From IMG/VR virus record IMGVR_UViG_3300029928_000270: 64,000 nt of DNA; one strand, written 5' to 3'. Made by a program: the position numbers and the translations under genes. Positions within the stretch are counted from its first letter, which is position 1. Each line of letters starts with the position of its first letter. The stretch comes from an uncultured virus (IMG/VR IMGVR_UViG_3300029928_000270) (taxonomy: Duplodnaviria; Heunggongvirae; Uroviricota; Caudoviricetes). Positions 33,501-49,480 of this stretch are shown piece by piece. The notes under the pieces were generated by a model. That model did not search any database, was not told the origin of the DNA, and saw nothing but the letters and a program-made list of their open reading frames with translations.

Positions 33501-36500
33501 GGAACTTATACTTATACAGTTACTGATACTGCAGGAAATACCAGTTCAGCGACAGTTATACTTGGAAATATTGATAAGAGTAATCCAGTTCTTGATAAGA
33601 TTTTAAAGTCTACGGAAGACCCTACAAATACAAATGTAGTTGTGACAGTTACAGCGCATGATGTTGGTTTAGGTTTAGCAGACAAGCCTTACAAGTTTGA
33701 TAGTAATGATTGGACTGACGTATCTGCAATAACAATAACCAGTAATGGTACTTATACTGTTCAGATTAGAGATAAAGCTGGTAACGTTATCACTAAGAGC
33801 TATGAGGTAAGTAATTTAGATTTCATAGCACCTATAATAAGCTCGGCAAGAGTTCTTCAGACAAGACCAGTTAAGGAGTCAGCAAGAATTGCAGTTCAGG
33901 CTACTGACGAAGGTTTTGGATTAGCAGATAAGGCATACAAGTTGAATGACGGAGATTGGCAAACTGATAACTGGTTTGATGTGACAGACAATGGAACTTA
34001 CACGGTATATGTTTGTGATAAGGCAGGAAATATTACATCAACCACTGTAGAAGTAACAAATATAGACAGAGTTAAGCCCGAAATTACGTATACTGTTAGC
34101 ACAACAGAGCCTACACCTACTTTAAGTATTGAAGTAGTCGGTACAGATAACATGGAGTTAGGGGCAGTAACTTGCAGTGATAGTCGTGTGGTCAAGGGGA
34201 AAACAAACTGGGTATCTAAGACTGAGTGTAGGCAGATATTCCTTATAAATCAGAACGGTACTTACAGATTTGATATACGGGACTTTGTAGGAAATACAAA
34301 CTATGTTGAGGTTACAATAGACAATATAGATAATGTAGCACCTACGATAGATAAGATTATAAAGAACCCTAATGTACCTACAAATGCTCCTTTGGAGATA
34401 ACAATAATTGCAAGCGATGTTGGTTTTGGTCTTGCAGATGAACCTTACAGGGTGGATGGAAGTGCTTGGCAGTCCAGTAACAAGTTTATGATTGCAGATA
34501 ATGGTGTACATGAAATAGATGTTAGAGATAAAGCTGGCAATACTATAATGATGACTACAGATATCTCAAATCTTGATTACGACAACCCAGTTATTGACGA
34601 GGTTACACAGGATATTACAGAGCAGACAAACACTGATGTAGTTCTTACAGTTACTGCTCATGATGTAGGGTTAGGTCTTGCAAAGAAGCCATATAAGTTA
34701 GAAGACAGCTCTTGGGTATCCAGTAATAAGTTTACTGTCGAAGAGAACGGTGACTATGTAATAAGTGTTAGGGATGAGGCAGGTAATATTGAAACTTACA
34801 CTCATACAGTTAGCAACATTGATAAGGAGTTACCAGTAGCTTCTCATACGGTGGATATTGATACTCCTACAAACAGTGACGTAGTTATAACTTTAAAGGC
34901 TACAGATAATGTAGAAATTAAGAGTATTACTCTTCCAGACAAAGCTGTACAGAATATTGGAAGTAATGAAGCGACAATTCCATTCACTGTTGTTGAGAAT
35001 GGAACCTACACCTTTAAGGTACTTGACACTGCAGGGAATATTACTACTTATCCAGTTGAAATAGATAATATTGATAAAAATCCTGCTGAAATAGTTGCTT
35101 CTCCGAGTGTGGAAGGTTGGACAAATCAGAATATTGAGTTGAATGTAGTGGTAACTGACGATACTCTTGTAAGAAAGGTTCAATCTCAGGGTATTTGGTA
35201 TGACTTAGATGCAGGTGAATTACCTAATGGAGCAGTTGTTGAGAAAGGTGGTCAGGATAGAATACTTAAGGTTAAGTTTAGTATTCCAGTTTCAGATAAT
35301 GGAACTTTTGAATTTAAGGCTATTGACTTTGGTGGTTTAGAGACAACATACTCATATGAGGTAACGTACATTGATAGAGTAGACCCCGAAATCTTCGCAA
35401 AGGTTGTGAATAGTGACCTTACTAAGGATAATGTAGATATTGCAATAACTACAAGCGATGCCTACGGTGAAGTAAGTCGGATAGTATTGCCTGGAGATAA
35501 CAGAATTGATGGCTCAGAGACAACTTATATTGCTACTGATAATGGAGAGTACAAGTTCACAGTTATTGATAAAGCAGGCAACTCTGCTGAAGCAGTTGTA
35601 AAGGTAGGAAACATCGATAGAGTTGCTCCTACGTTCACTTATGAGTTAAGCCCAAATGAGGATAGTTGGTCTAATGACAGCGTATTGCTTAAGGTAATTG
35701 GCTCAGATGAGAATGGTATCTCAGCATACAAGTTGTTCTTTGGTGAAGAAGAAATCAAAGCACTTGAGGGTGGGGTATTCCAGTTGTTTGAGAATGGTAC
35801 TTACAGAATTGTAGTTGTAGATACTGTAGGTAACTATTCAGGAACCGAGATTACTGTAGGTAATATAGATAAGGACGAGCCCACGATAGCAGTTGGTCTT
35901 AAGAATAAGTATTGGGTAAACAAGTCAAATACCATTGTAATAACTGGTCAGGACAACGCCAGTGGGGTATCAGGCTATAGCTTAGACGGTGAGAATTGGC
36001 AGGAGTCAAATGAGTTCAAAGTAAGTTATAAGAATTCATATACAGTTTATGTTAAAGACCTTGCAGGTAACGTATCAAGCATGACAGTTTACTTTGACTT
36101 GGTAGAGGAGCCTATTGAAGATGTTGAACCTTTACTTGAGGAAGAGCCAAAGGACGAAGATGAAGATATTGTAGCTCCTAAGTCCGACTTAGATGATGGT
36201 AGCTTGATTGTAATCGGCGAGTTAACTGACTTACCTGTTGAAGCAACCGAAGCAGAAGCAACAGAAGGCGATGTACTAAAAGTAGTTCAAAAGATTGCGG
36301 AAAATGTTGTGGAAGTAGCTAAGGTTGTATTCCCTTATGCCGCAGTTCTGCTCTTAGCAACAGTTGGATGTTTAGTATTCATTCTGTTGACCGATGGTGT
36401 TAGGGTATATGGTAAGAACAAGAAGGGCAAGTGGCAGTACTTGGGTATTGCAAGATGCCATAAGGGAGTAGTTGGATGTACCGTTAAGGTAAAGAGAAGT

Positions 36501-36653
36501 GTACTTAAGAAAGTTGATAGTGCCGATTATCTGCTGAAGTTTAATACCAGATACAGTACAATCAATAAGGGACTTGAACTCTACATTAAGGTTGGCAATC
36601 AGGCTATAACCAGTAATGTGTATAAGCAGGTTGAGTTCTCTGTAATGAAGTAG
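30594..36653 (+). CDS. 2019-aa membrane-anchored Ig-like repeat surface protein ('stalk')
   Basis: Signal peptide ending FAASA; half repeat followed by 21 ~83-aa repeats (NIDK..P...NGTY...D.AGN); acidic linker; TM helix; basic C-terminal domain. Confidence 0.9.
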   Translation: MKKLKKCIKSVISFSLAVVMLFSGISPLGIFAASASSFGVWQTDGNFTVTENGTYVIYAKDAVGNTTSIEITVNNIDYTPPTLDVGYSTTEWTKDGVKLVLTSVDQASPGGTAGTVSLSVVGSDGTSYPTDHLFTLNTSGTVTSTDDVGNAVSKPFSITNVDTVVPSISISADITSPTNGNVTLKISGSDAESGLNAKPYSWDGTTWTDVATKTVSANGVYTGYIRDAVGNISSTTISVANIDKVAPTISGYSYSTEAPCNTSVVVTVNATDTGLGLADSAYSFNGGAYGTSNKLTVTANGTYTVAVKDKAGNITNGSFKLSNLDFEAPVISSVVPSTTAETNTDVTLTINATDNVGGLGLADKAYRLQGYENWQTSNVVTVTCNGTYTVEVKDEAGNIASKSIEITNIDKEPPTASHVLNITSPTNTDVVATLTILDNKGIKKVVTPDGTVVTQVSFQSITDYTFSKNGSYTFEIWDTADNKTTHTVDISNIDKDKPVIDSIERSTTKECNTYVDITVTAHDVGLGLEAKAFKFTGGDWQSANTFRVSQNGTYSVSVRDVAGNITTQEFSVLNLDFDKPVIKAMTLSTTSQTNKDLTLTVTAEDIGLGLAKSAYRINGSAWQESNVFTIAENGTYTIEVIDKAGNIQTGTKTVTNIDKVAPKLSATVNTTEPTNQDVVVTLKASDDVEISKVFDANGESISLTKVSNEYTGTISESVNGTFTYKAVDTAGNETTCTVKITNIDKSNPVIDSIGRSTTVPVNTQVVITINAHDVGLGLADKPYNFDGTGWVSDKTKVITANGNYRISVKDVAGNITTQTYNVMNLDFDAPKVNGVSLSTTSPTNKDVVLTIDAEDVGLGLADKPYRLKNGTWQTSPKFTVSQNGTYTYEIIDKAGNIASVSKEVTNIDKVAPTISAKVNTTDPTNKDIEVTLTASDNVGIAKVVNTSGEVLNGTASSGNVVYTTSEVQNGTYTYTVTDTAGNTSSATVILGNIDKSNPVLDKILKSTEDPTNTNVVVTVTAHDVGLGLADKPYKFDSNDWTDVSAITITSNGTYTVQIRDKAGNVITKSYEVSNLDFIAPIISSARVLQTRPVKESARIAVQATDEGFGLADKAYKLNDGDWQTDNWFDVTDNGTYTVYVCDKAGNITSTTVEVTNIDRVKPEITYTVSTTEPTPTLSIEVVGTDNMELGAVTCSDSRVVKGKTNWVSKTECRQIFLINQNGTYRFDIRDFVGNTNYVEVTIDNIDNVAPTIDKIIKNPNVPTNAPLEITIIASDVGFGLADEPYRVDGSAWQSSNKFMIADNGVHEIDVRDKAGNTIMMTTDISNLDYDNPVIDEVTQDITEQTNTDVVLTVTAHDVGLGLAKKPYKLEDSSWVSSNKFTVEENGDYVISVRDEAGNIETYTHTVSNIDKELPVASHTVDIDTPTNSDVVITLKATDNVEIKSITLPDKAVQNIGSNEATIPFTVVENGTYTFKVLDTAGNITTYPVEIDNIDKNPAEIVASPSVEGWTNQNIELNVVVTDDTLVRKVQSQGIWYDLDAGELPNGAVVEKGGQDRILKVKFSIPVSDNGTFEFKAIDFGGLETTYSYEVTYIDRVDPEIFAKVVNSDLTKDNVDIAITTSDAYGEVSRIVLPGDNRIDGSETTYIATDNGEYKFTVIDKAGNSAEAVVKVGNIDRVAPTFTYELSPNEDSWSNDSVLLKVIGSDENGISAYKLFFGEEEIKALEGGVFQLFENGTYRIVVVDTVGNYSGTEITVGNIDKDEPTIAVGLKNKYWVNKSNTIVITGQDNASGVSGYSLDGENWQESNEFKVSYKNSYTVYVKDLAGNVSSMTVYFDLVEEPIEDVEPLLEEEPKDEDEDIVAPKSDLDDGSLIVIGELTDLPVEATEAEATEGDVLKVVQKIAENVVEVAKVVFPYAAVLLLATVGCLVFILLTDGVRVYGKNKKGKWQYLGIARCHKGVVGCTVKVKRSVLKKVDSADYLLKFNTRYSTINKGLELYIKVGNQAITSNVYKQVEFSVMK

Positions 36654-38380: not shown

Positions 38381-38505
38381 TCAAAGGTCGCTTGGTGGGG
38401 ATTGATACCGAGCGACTTTTCTTTTATGTTGAAGTTAGTAAATGCAAACGGGTATGCGGTTAAGTTAAAAGTAATTATTTGAAAAATTTAGGGGAGGTGT
38501 GCGCA

Positions 38506-39099
38506 ATGTTTTATATAAACTATGCAGATAATAACCTTTTAGGTGTTGTAGACACAAAAGATTTAGTTGAGGAACGCTACACTTATGCACAGGTAGAGGC
38601 TTTCACGAAGAATGGTATTCAGATATTTACTCAGGACATTCAGATGCATATGCTTAACTTAGCTTATGCTTACCATAATCTTATAGATGCTCTCGGCACT
38701 AAAGACAATGCAATAATAAGTTCAGCTTTGGATTATGCCGAGGGTGGAAATGCAAAGTTAAGTAAGGTAACACTTATCAGGATTGAAGCACCTCTTAAGT
38801 TGTATGTTTCCTGCATATTAGGTGTAAGAAAAGCTTACGGGTATTATGATTTTGGATACAGAAGTTTAAATTCAAAGATGCTTAAGTGGTTCAAATACTT
38901 GAAAGCTTCTATCTTGCAGTGTTATAGTGTTGATTGGTCTGATGATAATAACACTTATACACGTCCAGATGGACAGTTTGGAAACTCTCAGTATGACGAA
39001 TTGTCTAAAATACTGGACAAGAAAATTGATGTTTTCTGCAAGGAGTTTAAGATGCAGAAACGTATCGTGAACGAGTGGGTAAAAACACATATGCAGTAA
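38506..39099 (+). CDS. DTxD-module family protein (tandem array, copy 1)
   Basis: MFYINY...GVVDTKDLVEERY...YAEG...FGYRS. Confidence 0.8.
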   Translation: MFYINYADNNLLGVVDTKDLVEERYTYAQVEAFTKNGIQIFTQDIQMHMLNLAYAYHNLIDALGTKDNAIISSALDYAEGGNAKLSKVTLIRIEAPLKLYVSCILGVRKAYGYYDFGYRSLNSKMLKWFKYLKASILQCYSVDWSDDNNTYTRPDGQFGNSQYDELSKILDKKIDVFCKEFKMQKRIVNEWVKTHMQ

Positions 39100-39113
39100 T
39101 GGGGGTATTTGCT

Positions 39114-39725
39114 ATGTTCTATATAAATTATTGTGATTGGGTAGGCGCAGGTGTTGTAGACACGGCGGATTTAGTAGAAGAGTATCATACTTATGATGAT
39201 ATAAGTGATTATGAGAATAGAGGATTTATAATATTACCTCAGGAGGCTCAGACTTATTTGTTTTGGCACATGCGTTACTATTTAGAATTAATGTATGGTT
39301 TACGAGATAAGGGTAAGTCAGAAATATCAGCAGTCTTAGCGTATGCTGAGGGGAGGTCAAAAGATATAAGTAAACTTGAAATGGGGTTTCTCAGTACTCA
39401 TTATGTAAAAAATTATTCTGAGATGGTGACTGAGATAAGAACAAGATTTAAATATCCCAGCTTTGGGTATCGTAGTATAAAGAAGCTTACCTATAAGTTT
39501 TTTAGTAAGTTAATGGAAGTTGCAAAATCTAAGAGTGATATCGATTGGTTTGATGAAGATGATACTTATGAGAGGGAAGATGGTCATCTTGGAAGTTATG
39601 CATGGGATAAAATTTTTGATGACTTAGACAAGCTTGGAGATGATTTTTGTGAGAAATTCAGGTTTCAGAAAGACTTGTTAGATGAGTGGCTTGTATTTGC
39701 ATACGATTTAGACTCAGCATGCTAA
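39114..39725 (+). CDS. DTxD-module family protein (tandem array, copy 2)
   Basis: MFYINY...GVVDTADLVEEY...YAEG...FGYRS. Confidence 0.8.
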   Translation: MFYINYCDWVGAGVVDTADLVEEYHTYDDISDYENRGFIILPQEAQTYLFWHMRYYLELMYGLRDKGKSEISAVLAYAEGRSKDISKLEMGFLSTHYVKNYSEMVTEIRTRFKYPSFGYRSIKKLTYKFFSKLMEVAKSKSDIDWFDEDDTYEREDGHLGSYAWDKIFDDLDKLGDDFCEKFRFQKDLLDEWLVFAYDLDSAC

Positions 39726-39740
39726 ATGGAGGTATTTACT

Positions 39741-40337
39741 ATGTTTTATGTAAACTATCGGGATGATAAAGTTTCCAGTGTTGTAGATACAAAAGATTTA
39801 GTTGAAGAGTATTATACAAATGCCCAGATAGAGGAATTTCGTAAAGCAGGTATAACAATATTAACACAAGAAGACCAAATGGGTATGTTTGAGATTGCAA
39901 AGTATTATTTGCGTCTGATAGATAGTATTAAATCTAAGGATAAGAAAGTAATATCTGATATCGTAACCTATGCAGAGGGGCATATTAACATGGAAGATGC
40001 CATGCATTTATCTGAAGTGGAAGACTTTAGAGCAATCTTGGGGTTTAATAGTGTACTGTGGCAATGTAGAGAGGTAGTAGGAGATAATACCATAAGTCAT
40101 AAGGATATAAATAGAGAGTTGCTTAAAAATATTAGACGTTTGATGAATTTGATTAGGGAATTTACTGAACCGATGAATACATGGGGATATCTAAGTACAA
40201 ATGAGTGTAATCATTTTGTAAAGAAATTGCGTAGATATGAGGAGTCTATGTGTCAGTCCTGTAAGTTACAGTTTGACTATTTATCAGATTGGGCAATTTT
40301 GTCGTTCATGATAATGTTTCCAGTATTTGATGATTAA
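39741..40337 (+). CDS. DTxD-module family protein (tandem array, copy 3)
   Basis: MFYVNY...VVDTKDLVEEYY...YAEG. Confidence 0.8.
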   Translation: MFYVNYRDDKVSSVVDTKDLVEEYYTNAQIEEFRKAGITILTQEDQMGMFEIAKYYLRLIDSIKSKDKKVISDIVTYAEGHINMEDAMHLSEVEDFRAILGFNSVLWQCREVVGDNTISHKDINRELLKNIRRLMNLIREFTEPMNTWGYLSTNECNHFVKKLRRYEESMCQSCKLQFDYLSDWAILSFMIMFPVFDD

Positions 40338-40361
40338 TAAGTGTTGAGAGGAGCGTTTCTT

Positions 40362-40985
40362 GTGTTCTATATAAATTATGTAAAAGGTGACAATATTGGT
40401 GTTGTAGATACCACAGATATGGTTGAGGAAGTATATACCTATAAGCAGGTAGAGTCTTTTGTGAAGCGGAATATTACAATTCTCCCACAGGGTGCACAGT
40501 ATTACTTCCTTGATTTCATGAGTAAGTATTTTGATTTGGTAGGCATCTTGGGTACTTCTAATGAGAGTGTTATAAAACCAGTTTTAGACTTTGCAGAGGG
40601 AAGAGTTAAAGTTTTGCCTGAGTCATTTCGTGGTTGCAATAAGGAAGCAATAAACTCTTATCATGTAGCGGTTAACTATATAAGAAACGTTTACTGGTAC
40701 AGCGGCTTTGGGTATAAGAGCATAAACCCTATGGTGTATAAGCGGTTCAAGGAATTGTCAGATATTACAAATGAAATCTACAACATTAACTGGAAAGATG
40801 AGTCCTGCACTTACAGCCTGCCAGATGGTTCAGTTGGAAATACTCAATATGATGCTTATGTAGAGAAGCTGGATAAGGCAGTGGACGCTTTTTGTAGGGA
40901 CTGCAAATTTAACCGTAAGATGGTTAATAAGTGGATAAGTAAGTCAACAATAAATCTTGAGGATATAAAGATTTATAGAAGTTAG
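40362..40985 (+). CDS. DTxD-module family protein (tandem array, copy 4)
   Basis: GTG start; FYINY...GVVDTTDMVEEVY...FAEG...FGYKS. Confidence 0.8.
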   Translation: MFYINYVKGDNIGVVDTTDMVEEVYTYKQVESFVKRNITILPQGAQYYFLDFMSKYFDLVGILGTSNESVIKPVLDFAEGRVKVLPESFRGCNKEAINSYHVAVNYIRNVYWYSGFGYKSINPMVYKRFKELSDITNEIYNINWKDESCTYSLPDGSVGNTQYDAYVEKLDKAVDAFCRDCKFNRKMVNKWISKSTINLEDIKIYRS

Positions 40986-41069
40986 TCACCTAACAATCAA
41001 GTTCTCATCACCAAACTTAGTGTTACATTAAGAATTATTCAATTTTTGCATGATTTCGTCAATTTTCCC

Positions 41070-41098
41070 TTGACAGGTTGCAATTTTTATGTTACAAT
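41070..41098 (+). promoter_or_regulatory. SigmaA-type promoter
   Basis: TTGACA-17 bp-TACAAT with extended TG. Confidence 0.7.
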
Positions 41099-41191
41099 AC
41101 CACAAATAAATGTTGAAGGGAGTGCCACAAAACGCCAAGTAATTTGATGAGTTATAAAAATAATTTGTTGGTTTTGTAGCGTTGTATTTGG

Positions 41192-41404
41192 ATGTTAAAT
41201 CGTTATGAAAGTCTAAAATCTAAGGTGGCTAATGGAGCATCTCAGGTACATATGTATTCAAGTAAGACACATGTCAATGCAGATGCATCACTCGACCATA
41301 ATGGGTATGTGTTTGTTACTGTACCTAAGAGTAGAGTTGGAGAGCGTATAGTTCTGTACATGTCACCATTAGAATTCAATAGAAGCAGTTGGAGGTATGT
41401 ATAA
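41192..41404 (+). CDS. Hypothetical protein
   Basis: 70-aa ORF downstream of the promoter; weak RBS. Confidence 0.45.
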   Translation: MLNRYESLKSKVANGASQVHMYSSKTHVNADASLDHNGYVFVTVPKSRVGERIVLYMSPLEFNRSSWRYV

Positions 41405-41407
41405 GCA

Positions 41408-41785
41408 ATGAAGTGTCCTTATTTTAATGCAAGAGATTGTTTTAGCAATGCTTTTATAGCGTTAAGTATGCAGAGAGGTACTACTTGTTTACCTCTTTAT
41501 CTTTCTGATGTTGAGAAATACATGAAAGAGTTTCAGGAGATGATTATAAGGTGTAGTTTTTACGATGCAGAGGATGTACAGCAGGTAGGTAGTATTGATG
41601 ATTTTCTTATAGAAAATCTCATGTTCAAAGCAGGAAAAGATGCTAAGGGAGTATACTATAAAGTAGTTGATGGGTATTCTCTTGATGTATTCTCCTTAGT
41701 TTGCAAGTACAGATTAGGAATAAGCCTTGAGTTGCTTCAGATTTATCAATATTTAGACCATAATTTTGAATTTTGTTTAAGTTAA
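41408..41785 (+). CDS. Hypothetical protein, weakly similar to 43738
   Basis: D..SNA.I.....L..Y pattern shared with 43738; GGAGG RBS. Confidence 0.65.
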   Translation: MKCPYFNARDCFSNAFIALSMQRGTTCLPLYLSDVEKYMKEFQEMIIRCSFYDAEDVQQVGSIDDFLIENLMFKAGKDAKGVYYKVVDGYSLDVFSLVCKYRLGISLELLQIYQYLDHNFEFCLS

Positions 41786-41788
41786 TGG

Positions 41789-41817
41789 TTGACTTTTGGT
41801 CAGTTGTATGGTATAAT
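41789..41817 (+). promoter_or_regulatory. Strong sigmaA-type promoter driving the tRNA/ncRNA cluster
   Basis: TTGACT-17 bp-TATAAT with extended TG. Confidence 0.85.
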
Positions 41818-41857
41818 TTATTCATACTTAAAGGTTTAGGCACCTCGACAAGTATAC

Positions 41858-42042
41858 GGCTTAATACACCTCAGCTACAAGAGGTCTGTTATAAGCGACA
41901 AGGCTTGGCAGATAGAACTTCAGAGTGTATCGATGCAAACAAACTTTGCGACAGGTATAGTTCGGCTTAGGGTCTATTAATGATAGATGGGTAAGTTAGA
42001 ACACCGTCGAAAGGGAGACACGGTATCCACAAGTATTAAGCC
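41858..42042 (+). ncRNA. Unidentified multibranch structured RNA (domain A)
   Basis: Perfect 10-bp closing stem GGCTTAATAC/GTATTAAGCC enclosing about five hairpins. Confidence 0.6.
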
Positions 42043-42048
42043 ACTTTT

Positions 42049-42136
42049 GCAGTAGTACTCAAGTGGTTGAAGAGGCTCCCCTGCTAAGGGAGTAGTTCGT
42101 TAAATCGAAGCGTGAGTTCAAATCTCACCTACTGCG
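42049..42136 (+). tRNA. tRNA-Ser(GCT)
   Basis: GCAGTAG/CTACTGC acceptor, CTCCC-CTGCTAA-GGGAG anticodon arm, long variable arm, G73; CCA not encoded. Confidence 0.95.
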
Positions 42137-42169
42137 CTCCCCGATAGGGTATTTAATAAAGTTTTTTTT

Positions 42170-42259
42170 GGTGTAGTACTCAAGTGGCTTAAGAGAGCGG
42201 TCTTGAAAACCGTTAGTCCGATGTGAGTCGGAGCGTGGGTTCAAATCCTACCTACACCG
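42170..42259 (+). tRNA. tRNA-Ser(TGA)
   Basis: GGTGTAG/CTACACC acceptor, GCGGT-CTTGAAA-ACCGT, long variable arm, G73; CCA not encoded. Confidence 0.95.
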
Positions 42260-42281
42260 TTCTGCAGTAGCTCCATTGCAG

Positions 42282-42566
42282 ATTATAGTGTGAATGTGGC
42301 GGAGTTCTGCCACAGTATGAGGTTCTACGGTTGGGAGGTGTCGCTCCCATAGTCGTAGGAAAGGGCTACGATGGGCGGTGTCGCATCCATCGAACCTCAG
42401 ACAGAATGGACAAATGCAGTGTTCCACCCATCACAGATTGTAGTTGGGTTCTTATCAGAGCAAGGAATGATGAATTCCCTAAAATGTTGCATTTAGGAGA
42501 GAACAGACCCATATATGTTCCTCTGAATTTTGAAGTATGGAGTCAGTCACGGCAGAGATGCCGTGC
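42282..42566 (+). ncRNA. Unidentified structured RNA (domain B) with twin GUGUCG-loop hairpins
   Basis: Nested stems ATTATAGTGTGA/TCACAGATTGTAGT, TGTGGCGGA/TCTGCCACA, TGAGGTTC/GAACCTCA, TGGGTT/GACCCA, CACGGCA-GAGA-TGCCGTG. Confidence 0.6.
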
Positions 42567-42585
42567 AAATTTTTGAAGAGTTTTT

Positions 42586-42659
42586 GGACTCTTAGCTCAG
42601 TTGGTTAGAGCAACCGGCTCATAACCGGTCGGTCGTAGGTTCGAGTCCTACAGAGTCCA
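42586..42659 (+). tRNA. tRNA with CAT anticodon, most likely tRNA-Ile2 (lysidine type)
   Basis: GGACTCT/AGAGTCC acceptor, ACCGG-CTCATAA-CCGGT; body resembles Firmicutes tRNA-Ile2 rather than initiator Met. Confidence 0.85.
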
Positions 42660-42683
42660 CTTGGTACATTTTAATAATCTTGT

Positions 42684-42909
42684 AGGGTTGCAACAGACGG
42701 TTGTGTAAACTGACTCAGTCTTTGACTGGTATGCGAAGAAGTCCCGAAAAAGTGGCACTAATGTGATTGAAAAATCGCACCTATGAGGAAAATGCTCAAT
42801 GTACCTATTTTTACTGGATTTCCATAGCCTGCGTCCAGTTGGTTGGAAACCCGTATCAGTTGGCACTGGTGTAACAGCCAGTGTTAGCATTGGGGGACGG
42901 CATAACCCT
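42684..42909 (+). ncRNA. Unidentified structured RNA (domain C)
   Basis: AGGGTT/AACCCT closure, GACTGGTATG/CGTATCAGTT helix, TGTGATT-GAAA-AATCGCA tetraloop hairpin, CACTGG/CCAGTG hairpin. Confidence 0.55.
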
Positions 42910-42930
42910 TATATCCTTTCTTTTGTGGTA

Positions 42931-43018
42931 TGAGATGTGGCGAAACGGTAACGCATCGGGTATTTCTCTGGTCGGGAGATTACCTTGAGTATTGGAGGTT
43001 CGACTCCTCTCATCTCAT
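42931..43018 (+). ncRNA. tRNA-like RNA with a 33-nt elongated anticodon arm
   Basis: TGAGATG/CATCTCA acceptor, GCG-AAACGGTAA-CGC D arm, GGAGG-TTCGACT-CCTCT T arm; no canonical anticodon loop. Confidence 0.75.
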
Positions 43019-43199
43019 ATCTTGTGCAGTAGCGCAAGACGTACGCTTTTGTTTTTCTATGTGTTTTATTTGCATGCTAAGAAACGTTAGCTCTTGGGGG
43101 CATGCATTTTGGGCTGAGTAAGAGCGACACTTCTCTCAGATACGTGGGACGGTTCAGCCCTCTCCACCCAGTTTAGTAGGTGAAATATTGTAGTTATTA

Positions 43200-43259
43200 A
43201 TGGGTATTAGCTCTGTTAGCATAACTTAAGTTCTGCTAATTTTGTTAGTATCCATTTTT
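43200..43259 (+). terminator. Long hairpin plus U tract closing the RNA cluster
   Basis: ATGGGTATTAGC...GTTAGTATCCAT followed by TTTTT. Confidence 0.65.
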
Positions 43260-43335
43260 ATGTATGAGTCAAACTTAAAATTCACTTAATACTATGTTAT
43301 AATAGCAGTAATAAATATGAAGTGGGTGATTTTGT

Positions 43336-43737
43336 ATGGTATATATAAGCGGTATACATGCATTAAATATAGAGGATAGTTTGGAAACTTGTGGAGATTG
43401 GCATACTTCAGCGTTAAGTTGGAGTAACCTTGACTTGCGAGATAGTTCTAATTCAGTGTTTGGCTCTTGGGGTATTGAGTCAAACAAGAAGGTGCCAGAG
43501 CATGAGGAGTTGTATAATGTAGCAAACACCTTAAGGGCAGTTTTAGATTTAATGTCTGATGGTCAGGTTGGGTATTTACGTAACTTCAGAGATGATTTCT
43601 TCTGTGCGGATAAGTATAATGAAGAGTTTTTCAGATAGGTGATTTTGCTTAAAGACAATGAGCATTGGTTTGAAATAAATGCTTTAATGAAGCGTGAGTT
43701 TATGTATGAGTGGGACTTGTTTGTGGAGGGTATGTAG
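43336..43737 (+). pseudogene. Gene interrupted by an in-frame TAG at 43636-43638 (ISGIHALN..CGDWH family)
   Basis: Frame continues for 32 codons after the TAG (VILLKDNEHWFEINALMKREFMYEWDLFVEGM*) and stops flush with the next start at 43738. Confidence 0.6.
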
Positions 43738-44121
43738 TTGTATAGAATAGGTATTGAGGATTTAGCTTCAAATGCGTTGATAGAGTGCTTAAAGAATAAA
43801 GAGGGAGACCTCTCAAGTTATGTAGTTACATATAAAACCTTGGAGCGTTATGGAAAACAGGTTCAGGAGAGTTTAAAGGAGAGAGGCATAAACAGCTTGT
43901 TAGTTTTCGGACGTTGCAATACGTATAGAATGTATCATGAGCATAGCAAGTTTTTTGTTGAAGGTATTTCTGCAGAGGGTGAAGGCGTTTCACTTGTAAG
44001 TGGAGTTACTGTAAAGGATTTAATTGAGAGCTGGAGAATGTTTACTTCAGTTGACTTATTAGTTACATACATGGATAAAACTGCCTTAAGAGGTATAGAT
44101 GTAGTTGAAAGAATTAAATAG
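43738..44121 (+). CDS. Hypothetical protein
   Basis: GGAGGG RBS, TTG start. Confidence 0.7.
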   Translation: MYRIGIEDLASNALIECLKNKEGDLSSYVVTYKTLERYGKQVQESLKERGINSLLVFGRCNTYRMYHEHSKFFVEGISAEGEGVSLVSGVTVKDLIESWRMFTSVDLLVTYMDKTALRGIDVVERIK

Positions 44122-44145
44122 GTGCAGCAAGAGGGAGGTATAAGT

Positions 44146-44640
44146 ATGTTTTATTTAAAGGATTATTATGATGCACACGGTACAGACAGGAAGTTGGTAA
44201 TAGTAGATACATCGGATAATGTTGAGGAAACTTATCCTCAGGAGGTTATCTTTGATGCAATGAGGAAGTCACGCTTCAATCTCAAGATTTTGGGTATTGT
44301 GTACTCAGGTTCGGATTTCAGACTTAATAAGTACTGCAGAAGTTTAGTATATCTTGAAAACCTATCAAATGGGGACTGCTTAAAACTTATTTATCGTGAC
44401 AGTTCATGTAATCCTGATAGATATGTTTTATATCTTGGTGTTGGTGCTGATTCTGTTACTGAGAAATTCTTGGATATTGACGGCAAGATTCTTAAGTATA
44501 GAAAAGATAGGTTTCTTAAGGGCTTAGTAAAAGTGCAGTTGCACAAAGAGGGTATTGATGCGGACAATGGAACTCCAGTAGTTCCAAAGGGCGTTGAGTT
44601 AGAGTTAAAACAGGTTTATGCAAATGCTCAAAGGAGGTAA
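44146..44640 (+). CDS. DTxD-module family protein
   Basis: MFYL...LVIVDTSDNVEETY...KILGI. Confidence 0.75.
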   Translation: MFYLKDYYDAHGTDRKLVIVDTSDNVEETYPQEVIFDAMRKSRFNLKILGIVYSGSDFRLNKYCRSLVYLENLSNGDCLKLIYRDSSCNPDRYVLYLGVGADSVTEKFLDIDGKILKYRKDRFLKGLVKVQLHKEGIDADNGTPVVPKGVELELKQVYANAQRR

Positions 44641-44648
44641 ATTAAGGT

Positions 44649-45155
44649 ATGTTTTATGTAACGAAGAGAGTTGATAGTCATCATTTTATGGTGAAAGATA
44701 CTTATGACGGCGCAGTAGAGATGTACTCTGATGAGCAGTTGTATAATGTGGTAAAGAATGGGGTAGTACGTGTTCTTGGTGTGCATTATAAGGTTTCTAA
44801 GGAAGGTATAGAAGCATTTATAGTTGTGCCTGCCAGTAAGAGTGGTGCACTTGAAGATGCAGATTGCTTTGATGATTATGCAAGACATGTATTAACTAAC
44901 CAGTTAAGGGTGGTTGGTGTTAGGTTTTCTGAGTCAGATTGTATCTACGAGGACAGTATTTTGACTGTTGCAATACCTTTTATTTGTGGAGAGTCTGCTT
45001 GGAGGGTTAATGAGTATGGTGAGTGGGTTCTTGTAAATAAGGGTCTTGAAAGACAAGTTATAAGGGAGACAATGCGGTGTGCAAAGGAAGAGGGAATTAA
45101 GATTTGCATTTATCATGGAGAAAAAGGCTACACCTACTTCAGATTTGATGTGTAA
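44649..45155 (+). CDS. DTxD-module family protein
   Basis: MFYV...FMVKDTYDGAVEMY...RVLGV. Confidence 0.75.
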   Translation: MFYVTKRVDSHHFMVKDTYDGAVEMYSDEQLYNVVKNGVVRVLGVHYKVSKEGIEAFIVVPASKSGALEDADCFDDYARHVLTNQLRVVGVRFSESDCIYEDSILTVAIPFICGESAWRVNEYGEWVLVNKGLERQVIRETMRCAKEEGIKICIYHGEKGYTYFRFDV

Positions 45156-45250
45156 CTAATATTTGTATCAAAAAGCATAAAATCTCTGCTTGACTTTTCT
45201 TAAGTTACATGGTAAAATATGTTAGCAAAGTCAAAAGAGGGGTATTTGTT

Positions 45251-45694
45251 ATGGTAGTTATTGAGAACCGTTCTGCACGTTACAATTACTTCATTGAAGA
45301 CACTTTAGAGTGTGGAATTTCCTTGAAAGGCAATGAGGTAAAGAGTATCAGAGCAGGAAAAGCAAGTATAAATGAAGCATGGTGTCAGATACAGGATGGC
45401 AATCTTGTAGTGAGGGGTATGTTTATCTCTAAGTGGGACACTGCTAACTCTTTTGATGTAGAGGAGAGAAGAGAACGTCAGTTATTAGCGCACAAGCGTG
45501 AAATTCTCAAAGTTAAGCAGAGCATTTCTGAAGTTGGTTACACTTTAGTGCCTTTGAAGGTTTATTTTGTAGGTTCTAAGTGTAAGATGCTTGTAGGTAT
45601 CTGCAAAGGCAAGCATGTCTACGATAAGAGAGAGGTTCTGAAGAAGAAAACCGTTGACATGAGTATAAGAAAAGCCATGAAAGGCTCTTTGTAA
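45251..45694 (+). CDS. smpB: SsrA-binding protein SmpB
   Basis: ENRSARYNYFI..ECGISLKGNEVKSIRAG...LLAHKREI...TLVPLKVYF...GKHVYDKRE; promoter TTGACT..TAAAAT at ~45190. Confidence 0.97.
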   Translation: MVVIENRSARYNYFIEDTLECGISLKGNEVKSIRAGKASINEAWCQIQDGNLVVRGMFISKWDTANSFDVEERRERQLLAHKREILKVKQSISEVGYTLVPLKVYFVGSKCKMLVGICKGKHVYDKREVLKKKTVDMSIRKAMKGSL

Positions 45695-45706
45695 TGGAGG
45701 GTATTT

Positions 45707-45850
45707 ATGAAGATGTCAGTTGAAGTTAAAACTCCAATGACCTCAGAAGATATTGAGCATGAGGTAGTTGGTTCTACAAGAGTAATGGGTATGGTAGTAA
45801 TTGTGACTCTTGCATTACTTGCGTTTGTGATTGTCGCAGTTATTATATAA
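45707..45850 (+). CDS. 47-aa protein with C-terminal TM helix, between smpB and ssrA (absent from the ORF track)
   Basis: GGAGGG RBS; MKMSVEVKTPMTSEDIEHEVVGSTRVMGMVVIVTLALLAFVIVAVII*. Confidence 0.65.
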   Translation: MKMSVEVKTPMTSEDIEHEVVGSTRVMGMVVIVTLALLAFVIVAVII

Positions 45851-45857
45851 CATTTAA

Positions 45858-46222
45858 GGGTTAGTAAAGGTTTCGACAGGGACTTGAAAGCCTGCATTAC
45901 ACTTAGGGTGGTAACCTTATATAACCAAACCAAATAAACGCTAACAAACGTTTAGTTGCCGTAGCAGCCTAATAGGTGTGTTACACCAAAAAGGTAGTCG
46001 GGTGGATAGGCTACTTGAGGTTCAAAAAGTTCCACGCTTTGTTGATGCTCAGATTCTAAAGAGGTACGAGCGACCCAGTAAAGCGAGCATACGCAGTCAT
46101 GTAGGGATTTAGGACGCCCTGAGTAGTGATTGGGAAGATACATACTGAAGTCCGAGAGATGAGTGTAGTAAGGTGTAGGTTAATAGGGTTTTTGGACAGG
46201 GGTTCGATTCCCCTCTAATCCA
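45858..46222 (+). ncRNA. ssrA: tmRNA, tag (A)ANKRLVAVAA
   Basis: 5' GGGTTAG-TAAAGGTTTCGAC, 3' AGGGG-TTCGATT-CCCCT-CTAATCC-A with G3:U70; resume codon GCT at 45940 after ATAAAC; TAA TAG at 45970-45975. Confidence 0.95.
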
Positions 46223-46375
46223 TTTTTCGTTCAGAGTGAGCGGATACGTTTCGGTAGATACGAAAACCGATGTGCAATGATAGTAGTTCAATGCTGAGGG
46301 CGGCTGAGATTAAAGACAGGAGGGTGAAGTCTTGGGAAGTCGCTACTGGAGTTGCTCAAACAAGTGGGGGTATTT

Positions 46376-46894
46376 ATGTTTTACGTTTCAGAACTTAGAG
46401 GAAGGATGCATAACGGTTTTGTAGGAGTCACAGATACTACTGACGGTGTAACAGAATACTATGCAGATAATGTCCTTGTTAAGTTAATCCAAAGTAAAGA
46501 AATACCCAGTGAGATTTATGGTATTGATATTTATAATAATACGTTAGAGGCTACTGTTTTACATATAGATAAGACTTTGGATGAGTCCGAGTTACGTAAA
46601 CGCATAGATAATTGGAAACGTGTGCATAATCCTTGGACTGGTTTGCCAGTTAAGTATTATTTGGCAGAGTCTAAGGTTGGAACAGTTATAATTGTTAAGT
46701 ACACAGACACAACACCCGAGGGTAGGGTATTCAGTGGTACTTCAAAGATTACTCGTTTATCTTATGACAAATGGGTATTTGAGGATGATAATAGTACTTT
46801 TTCAGGTCAGACTGGAGATACAAGTTTTGCTACAAGTTGTGTTGAGTCCTCAGCCGTATACATGAGGTTGCAGTCAGTACATGTAAGAAGTTAA
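46376..46894 (+). CDS. DTxD-module family protein
   Basis: MFYVS...VGVTDTTDGVTEYY...EIYGI; paralogue of 46916. Confidence 0.8.
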   Translation: MFYVSELRGRMHNGFVGVTDTTDGVTEYYADNVLVKLIQSKEIPSEIYGIDIYNNTLEATVLHIDKTLDESELRKRIDNWKRVHNPWTGLPVKYYLAESKVGTVIIVKYTDTTPEGRVFSGTSKITRLSYDKWVFEDDNSTFSGQTGDTSFATSCVESSAVYMRLQSVHVRS

Positions 46895-46915
46895 GTATCA
46901 GAGGGGGGTATTTGA

Positions 46916-47428
46916 ATGTTTTATGTGTCAGATATTAAAACCAGAGGTAAGTTTAAACTTGTAGGTGTGTCAGATACAAAAGACGGAGTTACAGAGTATT
47001 ATAGAGAGGATGCTCTCCTTAATCTGTTAAACGACAGAAAGGTTTATTGTGAGATATATGGAGTATTACCTCATGCAGATGAATTATGGCTTATTGCCTT
47101 GACTTTGAATAAGGATATAACTGCTAATGAGTTGAAGCATCGCATCCTTAATTGGAGAAAGGTTCTTAGCCCAGAGTCTAAGTTGCTTGTGCAGTACTAT
47201 CTTTTCGAAGCTAAGATTGGAACTGCAATGACTATTGCAGTTGACAAAATTGGAGATAACGGTCAGAGGTTTAAGTATGGTATACGCTATGTTAAGATAG
47301 ATGAGGATACATGGGAGTATAATAATACTTTATTTAACTCAAAAGGATTGGCAGATTTCTTAATGGGGAGCGGTGTCGTAGCTTTCAGTGTTGGGTATGA
47401 TGATTATTTTGAAAAAGTAGTTTTTTGA
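46916..47428 (+). CDS. DTxD-module family protein
   Basis: MFYVS...VGVSDTKDGVTEYY...EIYGV. Confidence 0.8.
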   Translation: MFYVSDIKTRGKFKLVGVSDTKDGVTEYYREDALLNLLNDRKVYCEIYGVLPHADELWLIALTLNKDITANELKHRILNWRKVLSPESKLLVQYYLFEAKIGTAMTIAVDKIGDNGQRFKYGIRYVKIDEDTWEYNNTLFNSKGLADFLMGSGVVAFSVGYDDYFEKVVF

Positions 47429-47477
47429 TGGAGGTAGTTATGCACTACATACAGGGTATTGTGAGAAATTAGTTTTT

Positions 47478-47550
47478 CGGGGTGTAGGTCAAGTGGTAGA
47501 CCGCTACATTTGGGATGTAGACGTTGCAAGTTCGAGTCTTGTCACTCCGA
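47478..47550 (+). tRNA. tRNA-Pro(TGG)
   Basis: CGGGGTG/CACTCCG acceptor, CTACA-TTTGGGA-TGTAG, GCAAG-TTCGAGT-CTTGT; CCA not encoded. Confidence 0.95.
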
Positions 47551-47681
47551 TTCAGCCGTATTTGGCTGAGGTACATAAATGTTGCCCATCGTTTGTCATT
47601 TTGGGTGGGCACCTCCTTTCTCCTATTTTTATTTTGCTTGCAGAGGAGCCTGCTTTGTGGTCAGGTGTCGATTCTGCTGTT

Positions 47682-47816
47682 ACAGTTTCTCACAACGTAG
47701 ATGGAGATGTTGTATTGGTTTTCGAGACCAGTACGCATCTCCGTTTACATTTGTGGGTATTGCGATGTAGAAGTAATATAATCGAATTTGAATTTTTAGT
47801 TCATCGGGGAGACTGT
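47682..47816 (+). ncRNA. Structured RNA or 5' leader upstream of tip gene 1
   Basis: ACAGTTTCTC/GGGAGACTGT closing stem around a ~23-bp hairpin (47697-47748). Confidence 0.5.
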
Positions 47817-47849
47817 GGACTTTATTCTTTAAGAATGGAGGTAATATTG

Positions 47850-48641
47850 ATGAAGGCAAGAAAGATGTTAGTTGCATTGGGTTTGTCAGTAGTTTTGTTT
47901 TTAACTGGAAGTAATTTTACTGTTAATGCCGCCAGTAATGAAGTTGGTTCTGTAAGTATCACTCATGCCCATGTGAGTGATGCAACTAATGGGGGGGGTT
48001 GCTATATCACTCCGCACATTGTTAGTTACGGTACTAAGAATGTGAACGTAACTTGTGGTGGTTCGTATGGCGGTGGTACTGCAACGGGTGGTACTATTGG
48101 CGGTAAACCAACCTACACTTATACGTGTACAAGATGTGGTAATGTATGGACAGGTTGGGCAGAGTCAAAGCCCTCTAACTGCGATAAGGTAACTGGTACA
48201 AGAAAGGTTTGTAAGAAGTGTGGTAGTAGTTCTTGTAACGGTGACCATCAGGAAGGCTACGATTTAGCATGTGGCATGACTGATGGTCAGGTTCTTGGAA
48301 CTTATACCTTAGTTAAGCAGGACGGTAAGGACTATACATTGTCAGTTGTAACTGATACTGGAAGTTTAGAAGTAAAATCCTATAAGTGGAATGATGGTTC
48401 GACTGGCAGTTCTTATGCAGTAAAGTCAGACGGCTCTTACTCTTGTGTGGTAACAGTCAACGATGGGTATGCAGACCGCATAGGAACATTAAGTTATACA
48501 GTTACGGATTACGATAAGGAACCACCAGTTATAGGTTCTGTAACTTATAATAAGGATAGAACGAAAAATCCAGTTGATATTGTTGTAGTTGCAACAGATG
48601 AAATTTCAGGTGTAGCAGGATACATGATAGAGAAGAAATAA
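47850..48641 (+). CDS. Secreted Cys/His-rich protein with one Ig-like domain and a C-terminal half domain ('tip 1')
   Basis: GGAGG RBS, signal peptide, HAH...GGCY...CG, ends DYDKEPPVI...ATDEISGVAGYMIEKK; the track start 47493 lies inside tRNA-Pro. Confidence 0.85.
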   Translation: MKARKMLVALGLSVVLFLTGSNFTVNAASNEVGSVSITHAHVSDATNGGGCYITPHIVSYGTKNVNVTCGGSYGGGTATGGTIGGKPTYTYTCTRCGNVWTGWAESKPSNCDKVTGTRKVCKKCGSSSCNGDHQEGYDLACGMTDGQVLGTYTLVKQDGKDYTLSVVTDTGSLEVKSYKWNDGSTGSSYAVKSDGSYSCVVTVNDGYADRIGTLSYTVTDYDKEPPVIGSVTYNKDRTKNPVDIVVVATDEISGVAGYMIEKK

Positions 48642-48709
48642 TTCATAAGATACCCTTTACTTAGACTTAGAATAATGTTATAATATAAGCCAAAGTGGAG
48701 GGTATATTT

Positions 48710-49480
48710 ATGGCTATGTTTCTGTTAGAACAGTCTACAAATAGTTTATGTTCTGGAATGGACATTGAGATGTCTTTGGCTGGGGACTTAATCCGAAGAA
48801 ATAAGCACATACATGAGTTCAAAAGAACTTGGAGTTATGAATTTGGTGTTGGAGACCCTAATGATTTGAAGGGTTGTATTCCAATAGGCACAATAGACTT
48901 TGTAACAGACTTCATGAGAGTGTTTAAGAAGGATTTTAAGCAAAATCCCATTGAGATACCTGCATATTTGAGAACAGATGAATTCCTCAAGCGTGATTAT
49001 CATATCGGAGATATAAGAGATGTACCGTCTTCGGGTATTTGGTTTGTAAAGGACGTTTCAACCTTAAAGCATTTCTCAAAGGTATGCAACTTAAATTATG
49101 AGTTCAATGATTTGCTTGAGTTAGGGAGAGATGCAAATTACCTTGTCAGTTCTGTTGTAGATATACTGTCCGAATGGAGAGTATATGTTCTTGACGGTGA
49201 GATAGCCAATATTTGTAATTATAATGGGGATTGCACTTTATTTCCAGACATGAGTTTGGTAAAGAAGGCTGTAAGTCTTATAGAATTAAACGAGAAGTGG
49301 CTTAAAAGCTATACTATTGATGTAATGGTAACAAAGAAAGGTACTGCTCTTATAGAGATACATAACTTTACATCAGTTGGCTTGTATTCCACTTTGTGGG
49401 GGCAGAATTTGTTATGGGGGTATATAGATGGAATTCGGTATTTGCAGGAGGATAATCATAAGTTAGCATTAAAACCCTAA
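48710..49480 (+). CDS. ATP-grasp domain protein (DUF4343/R2K-like)
   Basis: PIGTIDFV, PIEIP..L, WFVK, SEWRVYV, YTIDV, LIEIH...GLY. Confidence 0.75.
   Translation: MAMFLLEQSTNSLCSGMDIEMSLAGDLIRRNKHIHEFKRTWSYEFGVGDPNDLKGCIPIGTIDFVTDFMRVFKKDFKQNPIEIPAYLRTDEFLKRDYHIGDIRDVPSSGIWFVKDVSTLKHFSKVCNLNYEFNDLLELGRDANYLVSSVVDILSEWRVYVLDGEIANICNYNGDCTLFPDMSLVKKAVSLIELNEKWLKSYTIDVMVTKKGTALIEIHNFTSVGLYSTLWGQNLLWGYIDGIRYLQEDNHKLALKP

Follow-up and report, generated by a model that had tools for sequence, protein, structure and literature searches.

The tRNA gene cluster of bacteriophage T4 encodes two stable RNAs, C and D (also termed species 1 and 2). Both are situated between the tRNA genes and co-transcribed with them; the enzymes of tRNA processing presumably set them free, and no function is known for either. 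The large ornate RNAs GOLLD and ROOL, families represented in Rfam, are a further type of RNA accessory of phage tRNA islands. According to a report on gut Caudoviricetes, minimal ribozymes of the hepatitis delta virus (HDV) type, the theta ribozymes, are positioned at tRNA 3' ends with a cleavage site within +/-5 nt (PMC10879173). The present analysis deals with an RNA-only locus of an uncultured caudoviricete phage (IMG/VR record IMGVR_UViG_3300029928_000270), of which a stretch of 64,000 nt, in the following termed the window, was investigated; all positions refer to the whole window, and in comparisons the locus was taken as 41701-43300. Three tRNA genes, one tRNA-like gene and the spacers between them are enclosed by a promoter and a terminal hairpin; a module of approximately 102 nt (42464-42565) directly upstream of one of the tRNA genes recurs in two distantly related phage contigs. 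In our view, the locus is probably an ordinary phage tRNA operon that carries one new family of small structured RNA and, for the rest, hairpin spacers specific to its lineage; it is not an ornate RNA of the GOLLD/ROOL kind.

The T4 stable RNAs may be regarded as the closest analogy to the module: Like the products of rnaC and rnaD, it lies between tRNA genes inside one promoter-to-terminator unit. Unlike them, it is defined by an invariant loop and a downstream segment with pseudoknot potential, and it occurs in gut and environmental phage contigs that are unrelated to T4; the link is one of analogy, and no relatedness in sequence or structure is expected. From GOLLD and ROOL the locus differs in several respects: the conserved element comprises ~100 nt and not 600-800 nt, a multi-domain RNA of >500 nt that is conserved across phages was not found here, the long spacer parts are unconserved even at ~90% identity, and no spacer matches any Rfam model at E<=10. 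Indeed, cmscan (the window at gathering scores, 41000-48500 at E<=10) returned only tRNA, transfer-messenger RNA (tmRNA) and chance-level matches, and no Rfam 15 family was detected in any spacer at gathering scores or at E<=10. In a preliminary description of the locus, the spacer domains could not be assigned by eye to GOLLD or ROOL.

With the theta ribozymes (PMC10879173), the module shares its nature as a small structured RNA coupled to CCA-less tRNAs of mammalian gut phages; in both cases, tRNA-Met and tRNA-Leu belong to the most frequent partners. In contrast, the theta ribozyme adopts the nested double-pseudoknot HDV fold and is located at the tRNA 3' end (PMC10879173), whereas the module has a predicted hairpin-pseudoknot-hairpin layout and is located 5' of the tRNA. 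A scan for the HDV/theta topology (P1, P1.1, P2, P3, P4; loose descriptor) downstream of the four tRNA 3' ends of the locus gave no candidates, and no HDV-type Rfam match was present in 41000-48500 at E<=10.

A conserved module upstream of tRNA-type genes

Two distant relatives of the locus provided the basis for the comparison. The first, G001, is an IMG/VR record of 133.6 kb that was reached via SmpB at 56% identity and is collinear with the window: In tblastn searches, seven open reading frames (ORFs) of the window found a match, six of them at 28-35% and SmpB at 56% identity. In its ORF-free RNA cluster of 2.4 kb (on L011 of G001), spacers of 148-610 nt accompany tRNA-Gln, tRNA-Pro, a tmRNA and two tRNA-like genes of odd appearance. 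In the stretch from the last tRNA-like gene to the tmRNA (L011 2365-2623), an apparent short ORF (ATG at ~2413, stop at ~2533) with GGAGG upstream was observed, and the cluster of G001 may therefore not be entirely non-coding. The second relative, L048, is a phage-like metagenome contig of 5.5 kb with an ORF-free RNA cluster of 1.45 kb. A further metagenome contig of 191 kb, L038, contains a stretch identical to the locus and presumably represents the same phage.

The module is the sole non-tRNA segment that could be aligned between the locus and the RNA clusters of G001 and L048: blastn paired window 42482-42567 with L011 1027-1112 (69% identity over 88 nt, E 6e-7) and the module of G001 with that of L048 (75% over 91 nt, E 8e-11). 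R1, a covariance model derived from the sequences of the window and G001, scored L048 at 43.7 bits (E 1e-10); 31 loci that carry the core words by chance scored at most 20.2 bits. The module is present in one copy per genome. Scans with the core pattern returned six stretches with one true match (G001) from the viral contigs of IMG/VR, 18 stretches with two true matches (L038, identical to the window, and L048) from metagenome contigs, and ten stretches with no true match from the contigs of 185,579 species genomes; two relaxed patterns applied to the viral contigs gave five stretches and one stretch, respectively, in each case again with G001 alone. When the module of G001 was compared with phage records by blastn, only chance-level matches (E>=0.9) were seen among the 30 records listed out of 57. 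In word searches of the literature, no title or abstract among the papers listed described the module, a thin basis for calling it unpublished.

All three members agree in the presence of a hairpin P0, an A-rich linker that ends in YTTAG, a P2 loop AGACCCAUAUAU, an invariant UAUGGAGU, a hairpin P3, and the position directly 5' of a tRNA-type gene (see Table 1 for the coordinates in the window). P2 and P3 covary: nine of 15 base pairs change on both sides and 91% of the cells are paired (three sequences), a result that none of 500 shuffled controls reached in any of the measures, and slid controls paired 19-54% of the cells. P0 is contained in the minimum-energy fold of each single sequence (3/3), and the sequences forming it are unrelated. 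The segment GACCCAUAU of the P2 loop (42506-42514) is complementary to the invariant segment 42535-42544 in each of the members, and this pairing competes with nothing in the structure of R1; P2 and the helix between loop and downstream segment would together form an H-type pseudoknot. A closing helix P1 around the module was dropped, being inconsistent across the three members. On alignment, covariation and placement, the module is likely to be a conserved structured RNA of an uncatalogued family with three members and without Rfam match. The preliminary description had expected one or several undescribed structured RNAs; the module would be such an RNA, whereas large domains in the GOLLD/ROOL sense did not emerge.

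Other identities were considered for the module and discarded. A small ORF starting at the ATG in UAUGGAGU has no Shine-Dalgarno sequence, its frame enters the tRNA, and the conserved part is located upstream of it; pistol-like and hammerhead-like layouts gave no fit by eye.

The module is located within ORF-free tRNA clusters in each member (3/3); its distance to the following gene amounts to 20 nt (tRNA-Met) in the window, 7 nt (tRNA-like gene) in G001 and 5 nt (tRNA-Leu(UAA)) in L048. In G001, promoter-like sites are followed by the module as the first element, and the RNA cluster of L048 starts with it. Together with the U-rich tail, P3 resembles a terminator in the window only: in G001 and L048, the 7 and 5 nt between P3 and the gene hold no U tract. 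An intrinsic terminator or attenuator function of P3 is not supported, since the U tract is not conserved and the tail is skipped in a contig of a close relative (run X1, see below).

A separate observation concerns a second tRNA cluster of the window, outside the locus: A block upstream of tRNA-Pro(UGG) (47395-47476) is conserved in G001 (L011 1948-2026), with a match of 159 nt including the tRNA (63.5% identity, E 4e-8) and a best-kept core of ~35 nt. It overlaps the end of the window ORF 46916-47428 and may be a second conserved tRNA-leader element.

Anatomy and turnover of the remaining spacers

Most of the framework drawn in the preliminary description, which had been prepared from the letters of the window and a list of ORFs, was confirmed: a consensus promoter at 41789, a terminal hairpin with U tract, three tRNAs with a tRNA-like RNA, and GC-rich spacers devoid of credible ORFs. 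The promoter matches the consensus at 11 of 12 positions and is the top-scoring site of the scanned 2.4 kb; the number of promoter-like sites in this segment, five, is not above the shuffle mean of 5.7. The terminal hairpin was absent from the list of a simple terminator scan; the next promoter-like site downstream of it is found at 43275-43303. All four tRNA-type genes were called by ARAGORN and the Rfam tRNA model, and they are flanked and separated by spacers of ~190, 31, 325, 269 and 180 nt, counted from the first. The GC content is 0.41-0.525 within the locus and 0.285-0.39 in the flanks (window ~35%). Spacers contain no credible ORF: the longest on the + strand of the locus has 81 aa and a TTG start, none of the five longest ORFs of the locus matched PHROGs at E<=0.1, one of the five had a single sub-threshold Pfam match (E 0.046, 13.8 bits versus a cut-off of 23 bits), and the length changes seen in relatives are not multiples of three.

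Table 1. Features of the RNA-only locus in the window, with folding z-scores against dinucleotide shuffles.
Feature	Position	Strand	Folding z-score	Remarks
Sigma-70-type promoter of the RNA-only operon	41789-41817	+		TTGACT, 17 nt, TG extension, TATAAT
Domain A	41858-42042	+	-4.0 / -3.9; reverse strand -3.6	185 nt; ends 6 nt before tRNA-Ser(GCU)
tRNA-Ser(GCU)	42049-42137	+		CCA not encoded; ARAGORN; Rfam tRNA 57.7 bits
tRNA-Ser(UGA)	42169-42260	+		CCA not encoded; ARAGORN; Rfam tRNA 55.4 bits
Domain B, whole	42261-42585		-2.4	
Domain B, 5' part	42261-42463	+	-2.5 (over 42261-42480); reverse strand better	fast-evolving local hairpins
Conserved tRNA-leader module	42464-42565	+	-1.8 to -2.0 (over 42460-42572)	~102 nt; 3' third of domain B
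P0 hairpin of module	42464-42478	+		
A-rich linker of module	between P0 and P2	+		ends in YTTAG
P2 of module	42496-42504 / 42517-42524	+		bulged A
P2 loop AGACCCAUAUAU	42505-42516	+		12 nt, same in all three members
Downstream segment GUAUGGAGUC	42535-42544	+		invariant; separated from P2 by a linker
P3 hairpin of module	42548-42565	+		
Variable U-rich linker, P3 to tRNA-Met	42566-42585	+		
tRNA with anticodon CAU (Met; Ile2 if modified)	42586-42660	+		CCA not encoded; ARAGORN; Rfam 74.3 bits
Domain C, whole	42661-42929		-1.4	
Domain C, 5' part	42661-42814	+	-2.3	~155 nt; 8-bp closing stem 42663-42670 / 42798-42805
Domain C, 3' part	42815-42929	+	-1.3	hairpin-rich leader of tRNA-like gene
Non-canonical tRNA-like RNA	42930-43019	+		ARAGORN; Infernal tRNA model 42 bits
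Domain D	43020-43198	+		8-bp hairpin 43020-43039, then core
Domain D, core	43040-43198	+	+0.2 forward, -2.5 reverse	
Long terminal hairpin, then TTTTTA	43199-43256	+	-6.9 forward, -1.8 reverse	probable intrinsic terminator of the operon

In the tRNA-like RNA, the variable arm is long and the anticodon loop comprises 8 nt ('attt') according to ARAGORN, whereas Infernal finds 23 nt in place of the 7-nt anticodon loop. All three clusters contain non-canonical tRNA-like genes, whose anticodon loops are enlarged or 8 nt long (window 42930-43019; L011 1118-1194 and 2291-2364; L048 1545-1643 and 1690-1759); by eye, the 99-nt gene of L048 has an anticodon stem of 8 bp and a loop of ~27 nt. Such genes may serve as decoys or as frameshift or suppressor tRNAs, or they may be in decay. 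Directly 3' of a tRNA-type gene each, the two hairpins 42261-42282 and 43020-43039 start with TCT and contain GCAGTAGC; the stem of the former is kept in relatives by a compensatory change (42263/42280). Both may be signals for processing or stability in the tRNA trailers.

The four domains A to D had been described as large structured domains that consist almost wholly of nested stems. As far as folding energies are concerned, this holds for A and for parts of B and C, which fold better than their dinucleotide-shuffled controls (see Table 1), and fails for D: the core of D is no better than the controls, and the z-score of -3.3 obtained for D as originally drawn is owed to the hairpin behind the tRNA-like gene and to the terminator. 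Energies alone thus back A and parts of B and C, not D. The reverse strand folds about as well as the forward strand in the case of A and better in the case of the 5' part of B and the core of D. Domain A is closed by a 10-bp stem (GGCTTAATAC/GTATTAAGCC); the 5' part of B contains the hairpins H0 (42261-42282) and H1 (42296-42313) and a four-way junction of 80 nt (42319-42398) that is closed by a 7-bp stem and bears three hairpins. None of the domains has a further copy within the window, and the terminal repeats of A, searched as a pattern in the viral contigs, gave no match; the identity of A as a repeat of the miniature inverted-repeat transposable element type is unsupported on both counts.

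The claim of large structured domains is upheld only in part by the close relatives. Eleven DNA sequencing runs (pig gut, bovine gut, faeces) hold small shares of the sampled words of the locus, and four of them (X1, X2, X3, X6) were aligned to the locus at >=80% likeness. A relative with ~87-93% identity to the locus is represented in pig-gut and faecal runs by contigs of X1, X2 and X3. In these contigs, position 41834/41836 is joined to 42147/42166: Domain A and tRNA-Ser(GCU) are gone (310-331 nt, including the tRNA), and 12-29 other letters are present instead; correspondingly, the depth is zero across 41868-42035 in all four runs. tRNA-Ser(UGA) is retained (X2: four differences in 103 nt). 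Likewise, 42656-42659 is joined to 42813-42815 in X1-X3, i.e. the stem-closed 155-nt module of the 5' part of C is absent, although one X1 contig of 162 nt (depth 5) does carry 42667-42805 with eight differences. In X2, the centre of B (42324-42406) is swapped for 28 nt that form a single hairpin. Relatives of ~90% identity thus lack domain A, the 5' part of C and also the centre of B, or have other sequence in their place.

The remaining 5' part of B evolves fast: X1 (and also X3) differs at 35 of 130 positions (27%) between 42261 and 42390, compared with ~7% in the remaining 292 nt of the same X1 contig piece and 5-7% in the coding flank. In a model of local hairpins, which was drawn after the variants had been seen, ten stem positions are altered in the relatives, comprising three compensatory pairs (42263/42280, 42302/42307, 42372/42389), two G-U-compatible changes (42354, 42366) and two disruptive ones (42264 in X1 only, 42367). 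The long-range model proposed by RNAfold for B shows two compensatory pairs, five compatible and eight disruptive changes; it does not survive the variants and is outperformed by the local-hairpin model. The 3' part of C is included in the X1-X3 contigs that span 42813/42815-43269 at ~89-93% identity, domain D is kept in them at ~89-93% identity with 8-12 gaps, and a contig of X6 spans 43029-43168 with one difference; the tRNA-like RNA is retained in the relatives. As for the linker that connects P3 with tRNA-Met, 12 nt are skipped in an X1 contig, where 42566 is joined to 42579 (intervening letters are possible), and X2 and X3 have 1-nt deletions at 42577 and 42581.

Beyond these near relatives, no homologues of A, the 5' part of B, C or D were detected in the phage records, the viral contigs and the two distant relatives. 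In blastn, the locus matched 1004 of 50,697 phage records by its tRNAs only (best coverage 11%, none >=80%); a megablast of 20 kb against the phage records gave nothing, and a 31-mer from B had no match in the viral contigs. Judged from these comparisons, A, the 5' part of B, C and D would appear to be lineage-specific, fast-evolving, hairpin-rich spacers that are mostly dispensable, an assignment that shares the better-than-even standing of the whole explanation. Because the spacers are GC-enriched and their hairpins are kept, they are probably not neutral, yet probably not conserved RNA genes either.

Alternative explanations and possible function

Several points weigh against the explanation given so far, i.e. 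a tRNA operon with one new RNA family and dispensable spacers. The family has three members only, and the pairs were counted on an alignment that had been fitted to the structure of the model itself. Both strands of the pseudoknot are invariant, which puts this pairing outside the reach of covariation, and RNAfold prefers the helix between loop and downstream segment to P2 as minimum-energy choice in two of the three sequences, so that alternative folds are possible. With regard to the spacers, substitutions in the relatives were read for 40 of 148 rows, up to position 42390; the supposed filler is GC-enriched (0.38-0.50), domain A folds strongly (z -3.9), and compensatory changes preserve most hairpins in the 5' part of B. 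Taken in combination, GC enrichment, folding of A and hairpin retention in B imply that the spacers may be functional strain-specific RNAs.

This last consideration leads to the strongest of the rival explanations, namely that all four spacer domains are distinct functional RNAs, strain-variable accessory genes that are each freed by tRNA processing. It gains from the elevated GC content of the spacers compared with their surroundings, from the z-scores of A and of the 5' parts of B and C, and from the self-contained architecture of A and the 5' part of C with their closing stems of 10 and 8 bp; moreover, eight of the ten stem changes in the 5' part of B preserve pairing in the local-hairpin model, and tRNA-Ser(GCU) was lost along with A, so presence or absence alone does not prove that a segment is junk. 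However, the hairpin model for B was drawn once the variants were known, the core of D folds no better than chance, and the reverse strands of A, the 5' part of B and D do equally well or better. Given in addition the lack of homologues of the four domains in the databases and distant relatives named above and the dispensability of A, the 5' part of C and the centre of B in relatives of ~90% identity, we regard this explanation as rather unlikely.

A second rival relates to the module alone and takes it for a cis-regulatory or catalytic RNA, be it a leader, riboswitch-like or antiterminating, that governs read-through to the tRNAs, or a self-cleaving ribozyme aiding tRNA maturation. The combination of an invariant loop and invariant junction nucleotides with freely varying helices does resemble aptamer or ribozyme cores, a leader function would suit the position of the module behind promoter-like sites in G001 and at the start of the cluster in L048 as well as the terminator-like P3 and U tract of the window, and small ribozymes beside tRNAs are reported for gut phages (PMC10879173). 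On the other hand, the module occupies a mid-operon position in the window, the U tract is missing in G001 and L048 and skipped in X1, and the variable distance of 5-20 nt to the tRNA speaks against precise cutting at the 5' end; no riboswitch or ribozyme family of Rfam was matched at E<=10, and the nested double-pseudoknot topology was not encountered after any of the four tRNAs. A riboswitch-like, antiterminating or self-cleaving function of the module is accordingly judged unlikely.

The spacers might also be a graveyard of decayed or rearranged tRNA genes, left behind by duplication and loss within the array. The four-way junction 42319-42398 has the size and shape of a tRNA but lacks T-loop and D-loop consensus; GCAGTAGC behind two tRNAs echoes the 5' start of tRNA-Ser(GCU). 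Abnormal anticodon arms characterize the tRNA-like genes of the window and G001, and in L048 two stretches that count as spacers according to ARAGORN are non-canonical tRNAs according to Infernal (1545-1643, 46 bits; 1690-1759, 29.5 bits). In the spacers of the window, in contrast, the Rfam tRNA model finds no tRNA at E<=10, and ARAGORN at thresholds of 90% and 80% adds none on the + strand (at 80%, an antisense call over tRNA-Met appears). As this origin would also leave the conserved module unexplained, it is considered quite unlikely.

That the conserved block is a DNA-level site and not an RNA, with the inverted half-sites GACCCATAT and ATATGG(A)GTC ~20 bp apart bound by a dimeric protein, is extremely improbable: the two invariant segments are indeed imperfect inverted repeats that do not vary in three members, but there is no DNA rationale for compensatory changes in P2 and P3 or for a P0 of unrelated sequence, and the element lies inside a transcribed RNA-only unit, always in sense orientation beside tRNAs.

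If the favoured explanation of a tRNA operon with a new small RNA is followed, the locus would be a polycistronic tRNA operon in a large uncultured gut phage, with transcription starting at a promoter of its own and ending at the hairpin terminator. Host RNase P would cut the 5' ends of the tRNAs and RNase Z their CCA-less 3' ends, and the spacer RNAs would be released by this processing along with three tRNAs and one tRNA-like RNA; we infer this release from the position of the elements, the CCA-less ends and general tRNA maturation. As a best guess, the module would be released by RNase P as a discrete small RNA ending in P3, and its invariant pseudoknot face might bind a specific factor of host or phage. 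Alternatively, the module may be a cis-acting leader that assists in transcribing or processing the tRNA array. The two possibilities, a small RNA that is released and has a binding face and a leader in cis, are about equally likely, and both are favoured over the weaker readings as riboswitch, ribozyme, DNA operator or tRNA relic. The retention of the module in phages whose proteins share ~30% identity argues for a specific role in the expression or use of phage tRNAs.

Several of the other domains would, on the same explanation, be stem-closed cassettes that are gained, lost or replaced among near-identical phages; if these spacers have roles at all, they are probably general ones, e.g. insulating the folding of neighbouring tRNAs or conferring nuclease resistance. 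A bolder extension appears doubtful to the same degree as the graveyard: The locus would be a hypervariable island of RNA cassettes, in which A, the 5' part of C, the junction of B and the odd tRNA-like RNAs come, go and change places among nearly identical gut phages around the conserved pseudoknot RNA, as would be expected of decoys or countermeasures against tRNA-targeting host defences, and the module would represent a new factor- or ligand-binding pseudoknot class that belongs specifically to the tRNA operons of phages.

The usual annotation of a phage tRNA cluster consists of tRNAs with empty spacers; here, conserved and non-conserved parts of such spacers were separated. The module would join the T4 stable RNAs, GOLLD/ROOL and the theta ribozymes as an RNA accessory of phage tRNA islands. 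The remainder of the locus illustrates that GC-rich, well-folding spacers may resemble ornate RNAs by eye, yet be dispensable between strains.

The surrounding phage genome

The window is phage-like, with all long ORFs on the + strand. Pfam identifies SmpB (45209-45694, E 4e-49) as well as subunits of gyrase/topoisomerase and an NAD-ligase domain; at 45858-46225, a tmRNA with the tag ANKRLVAVAA is encoded. When the flanking proteins were compared with the viral contigs, one search gave a single weak match (L001) and the other none. G001 likewise possesses SmpB (L002 7971-8444) and a tmRNA (L011 2624-3040), the latter with the tag ADNSRPVAIAA. In the Logan and ENA assemblies, 1466 proteins related to SmpB were found at E<=1e-20, with 60-95% identity among the 120 of the 1466 that are listed; the contigs encoding such relatives reach 296 kb.

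Upstream of the locus, a 2019-aa ORF (30594-36653) contains BiPBP_C, Big_13 and P-domain-like repeats and probably encodes a large surface or tail-fibre-type protein. It is followed by four consecutive paralogous ORFs of 203-216 aa (38479-40985; 27-39% mutual identity) without Pfam family; two further paralogous ORFs of 170-180 aa (35% identity), also without Pfam family, are situated downstream of the locus at 46352-47428, and an R2K-clade ATP-grasp protein is encoded at 48695-49480.

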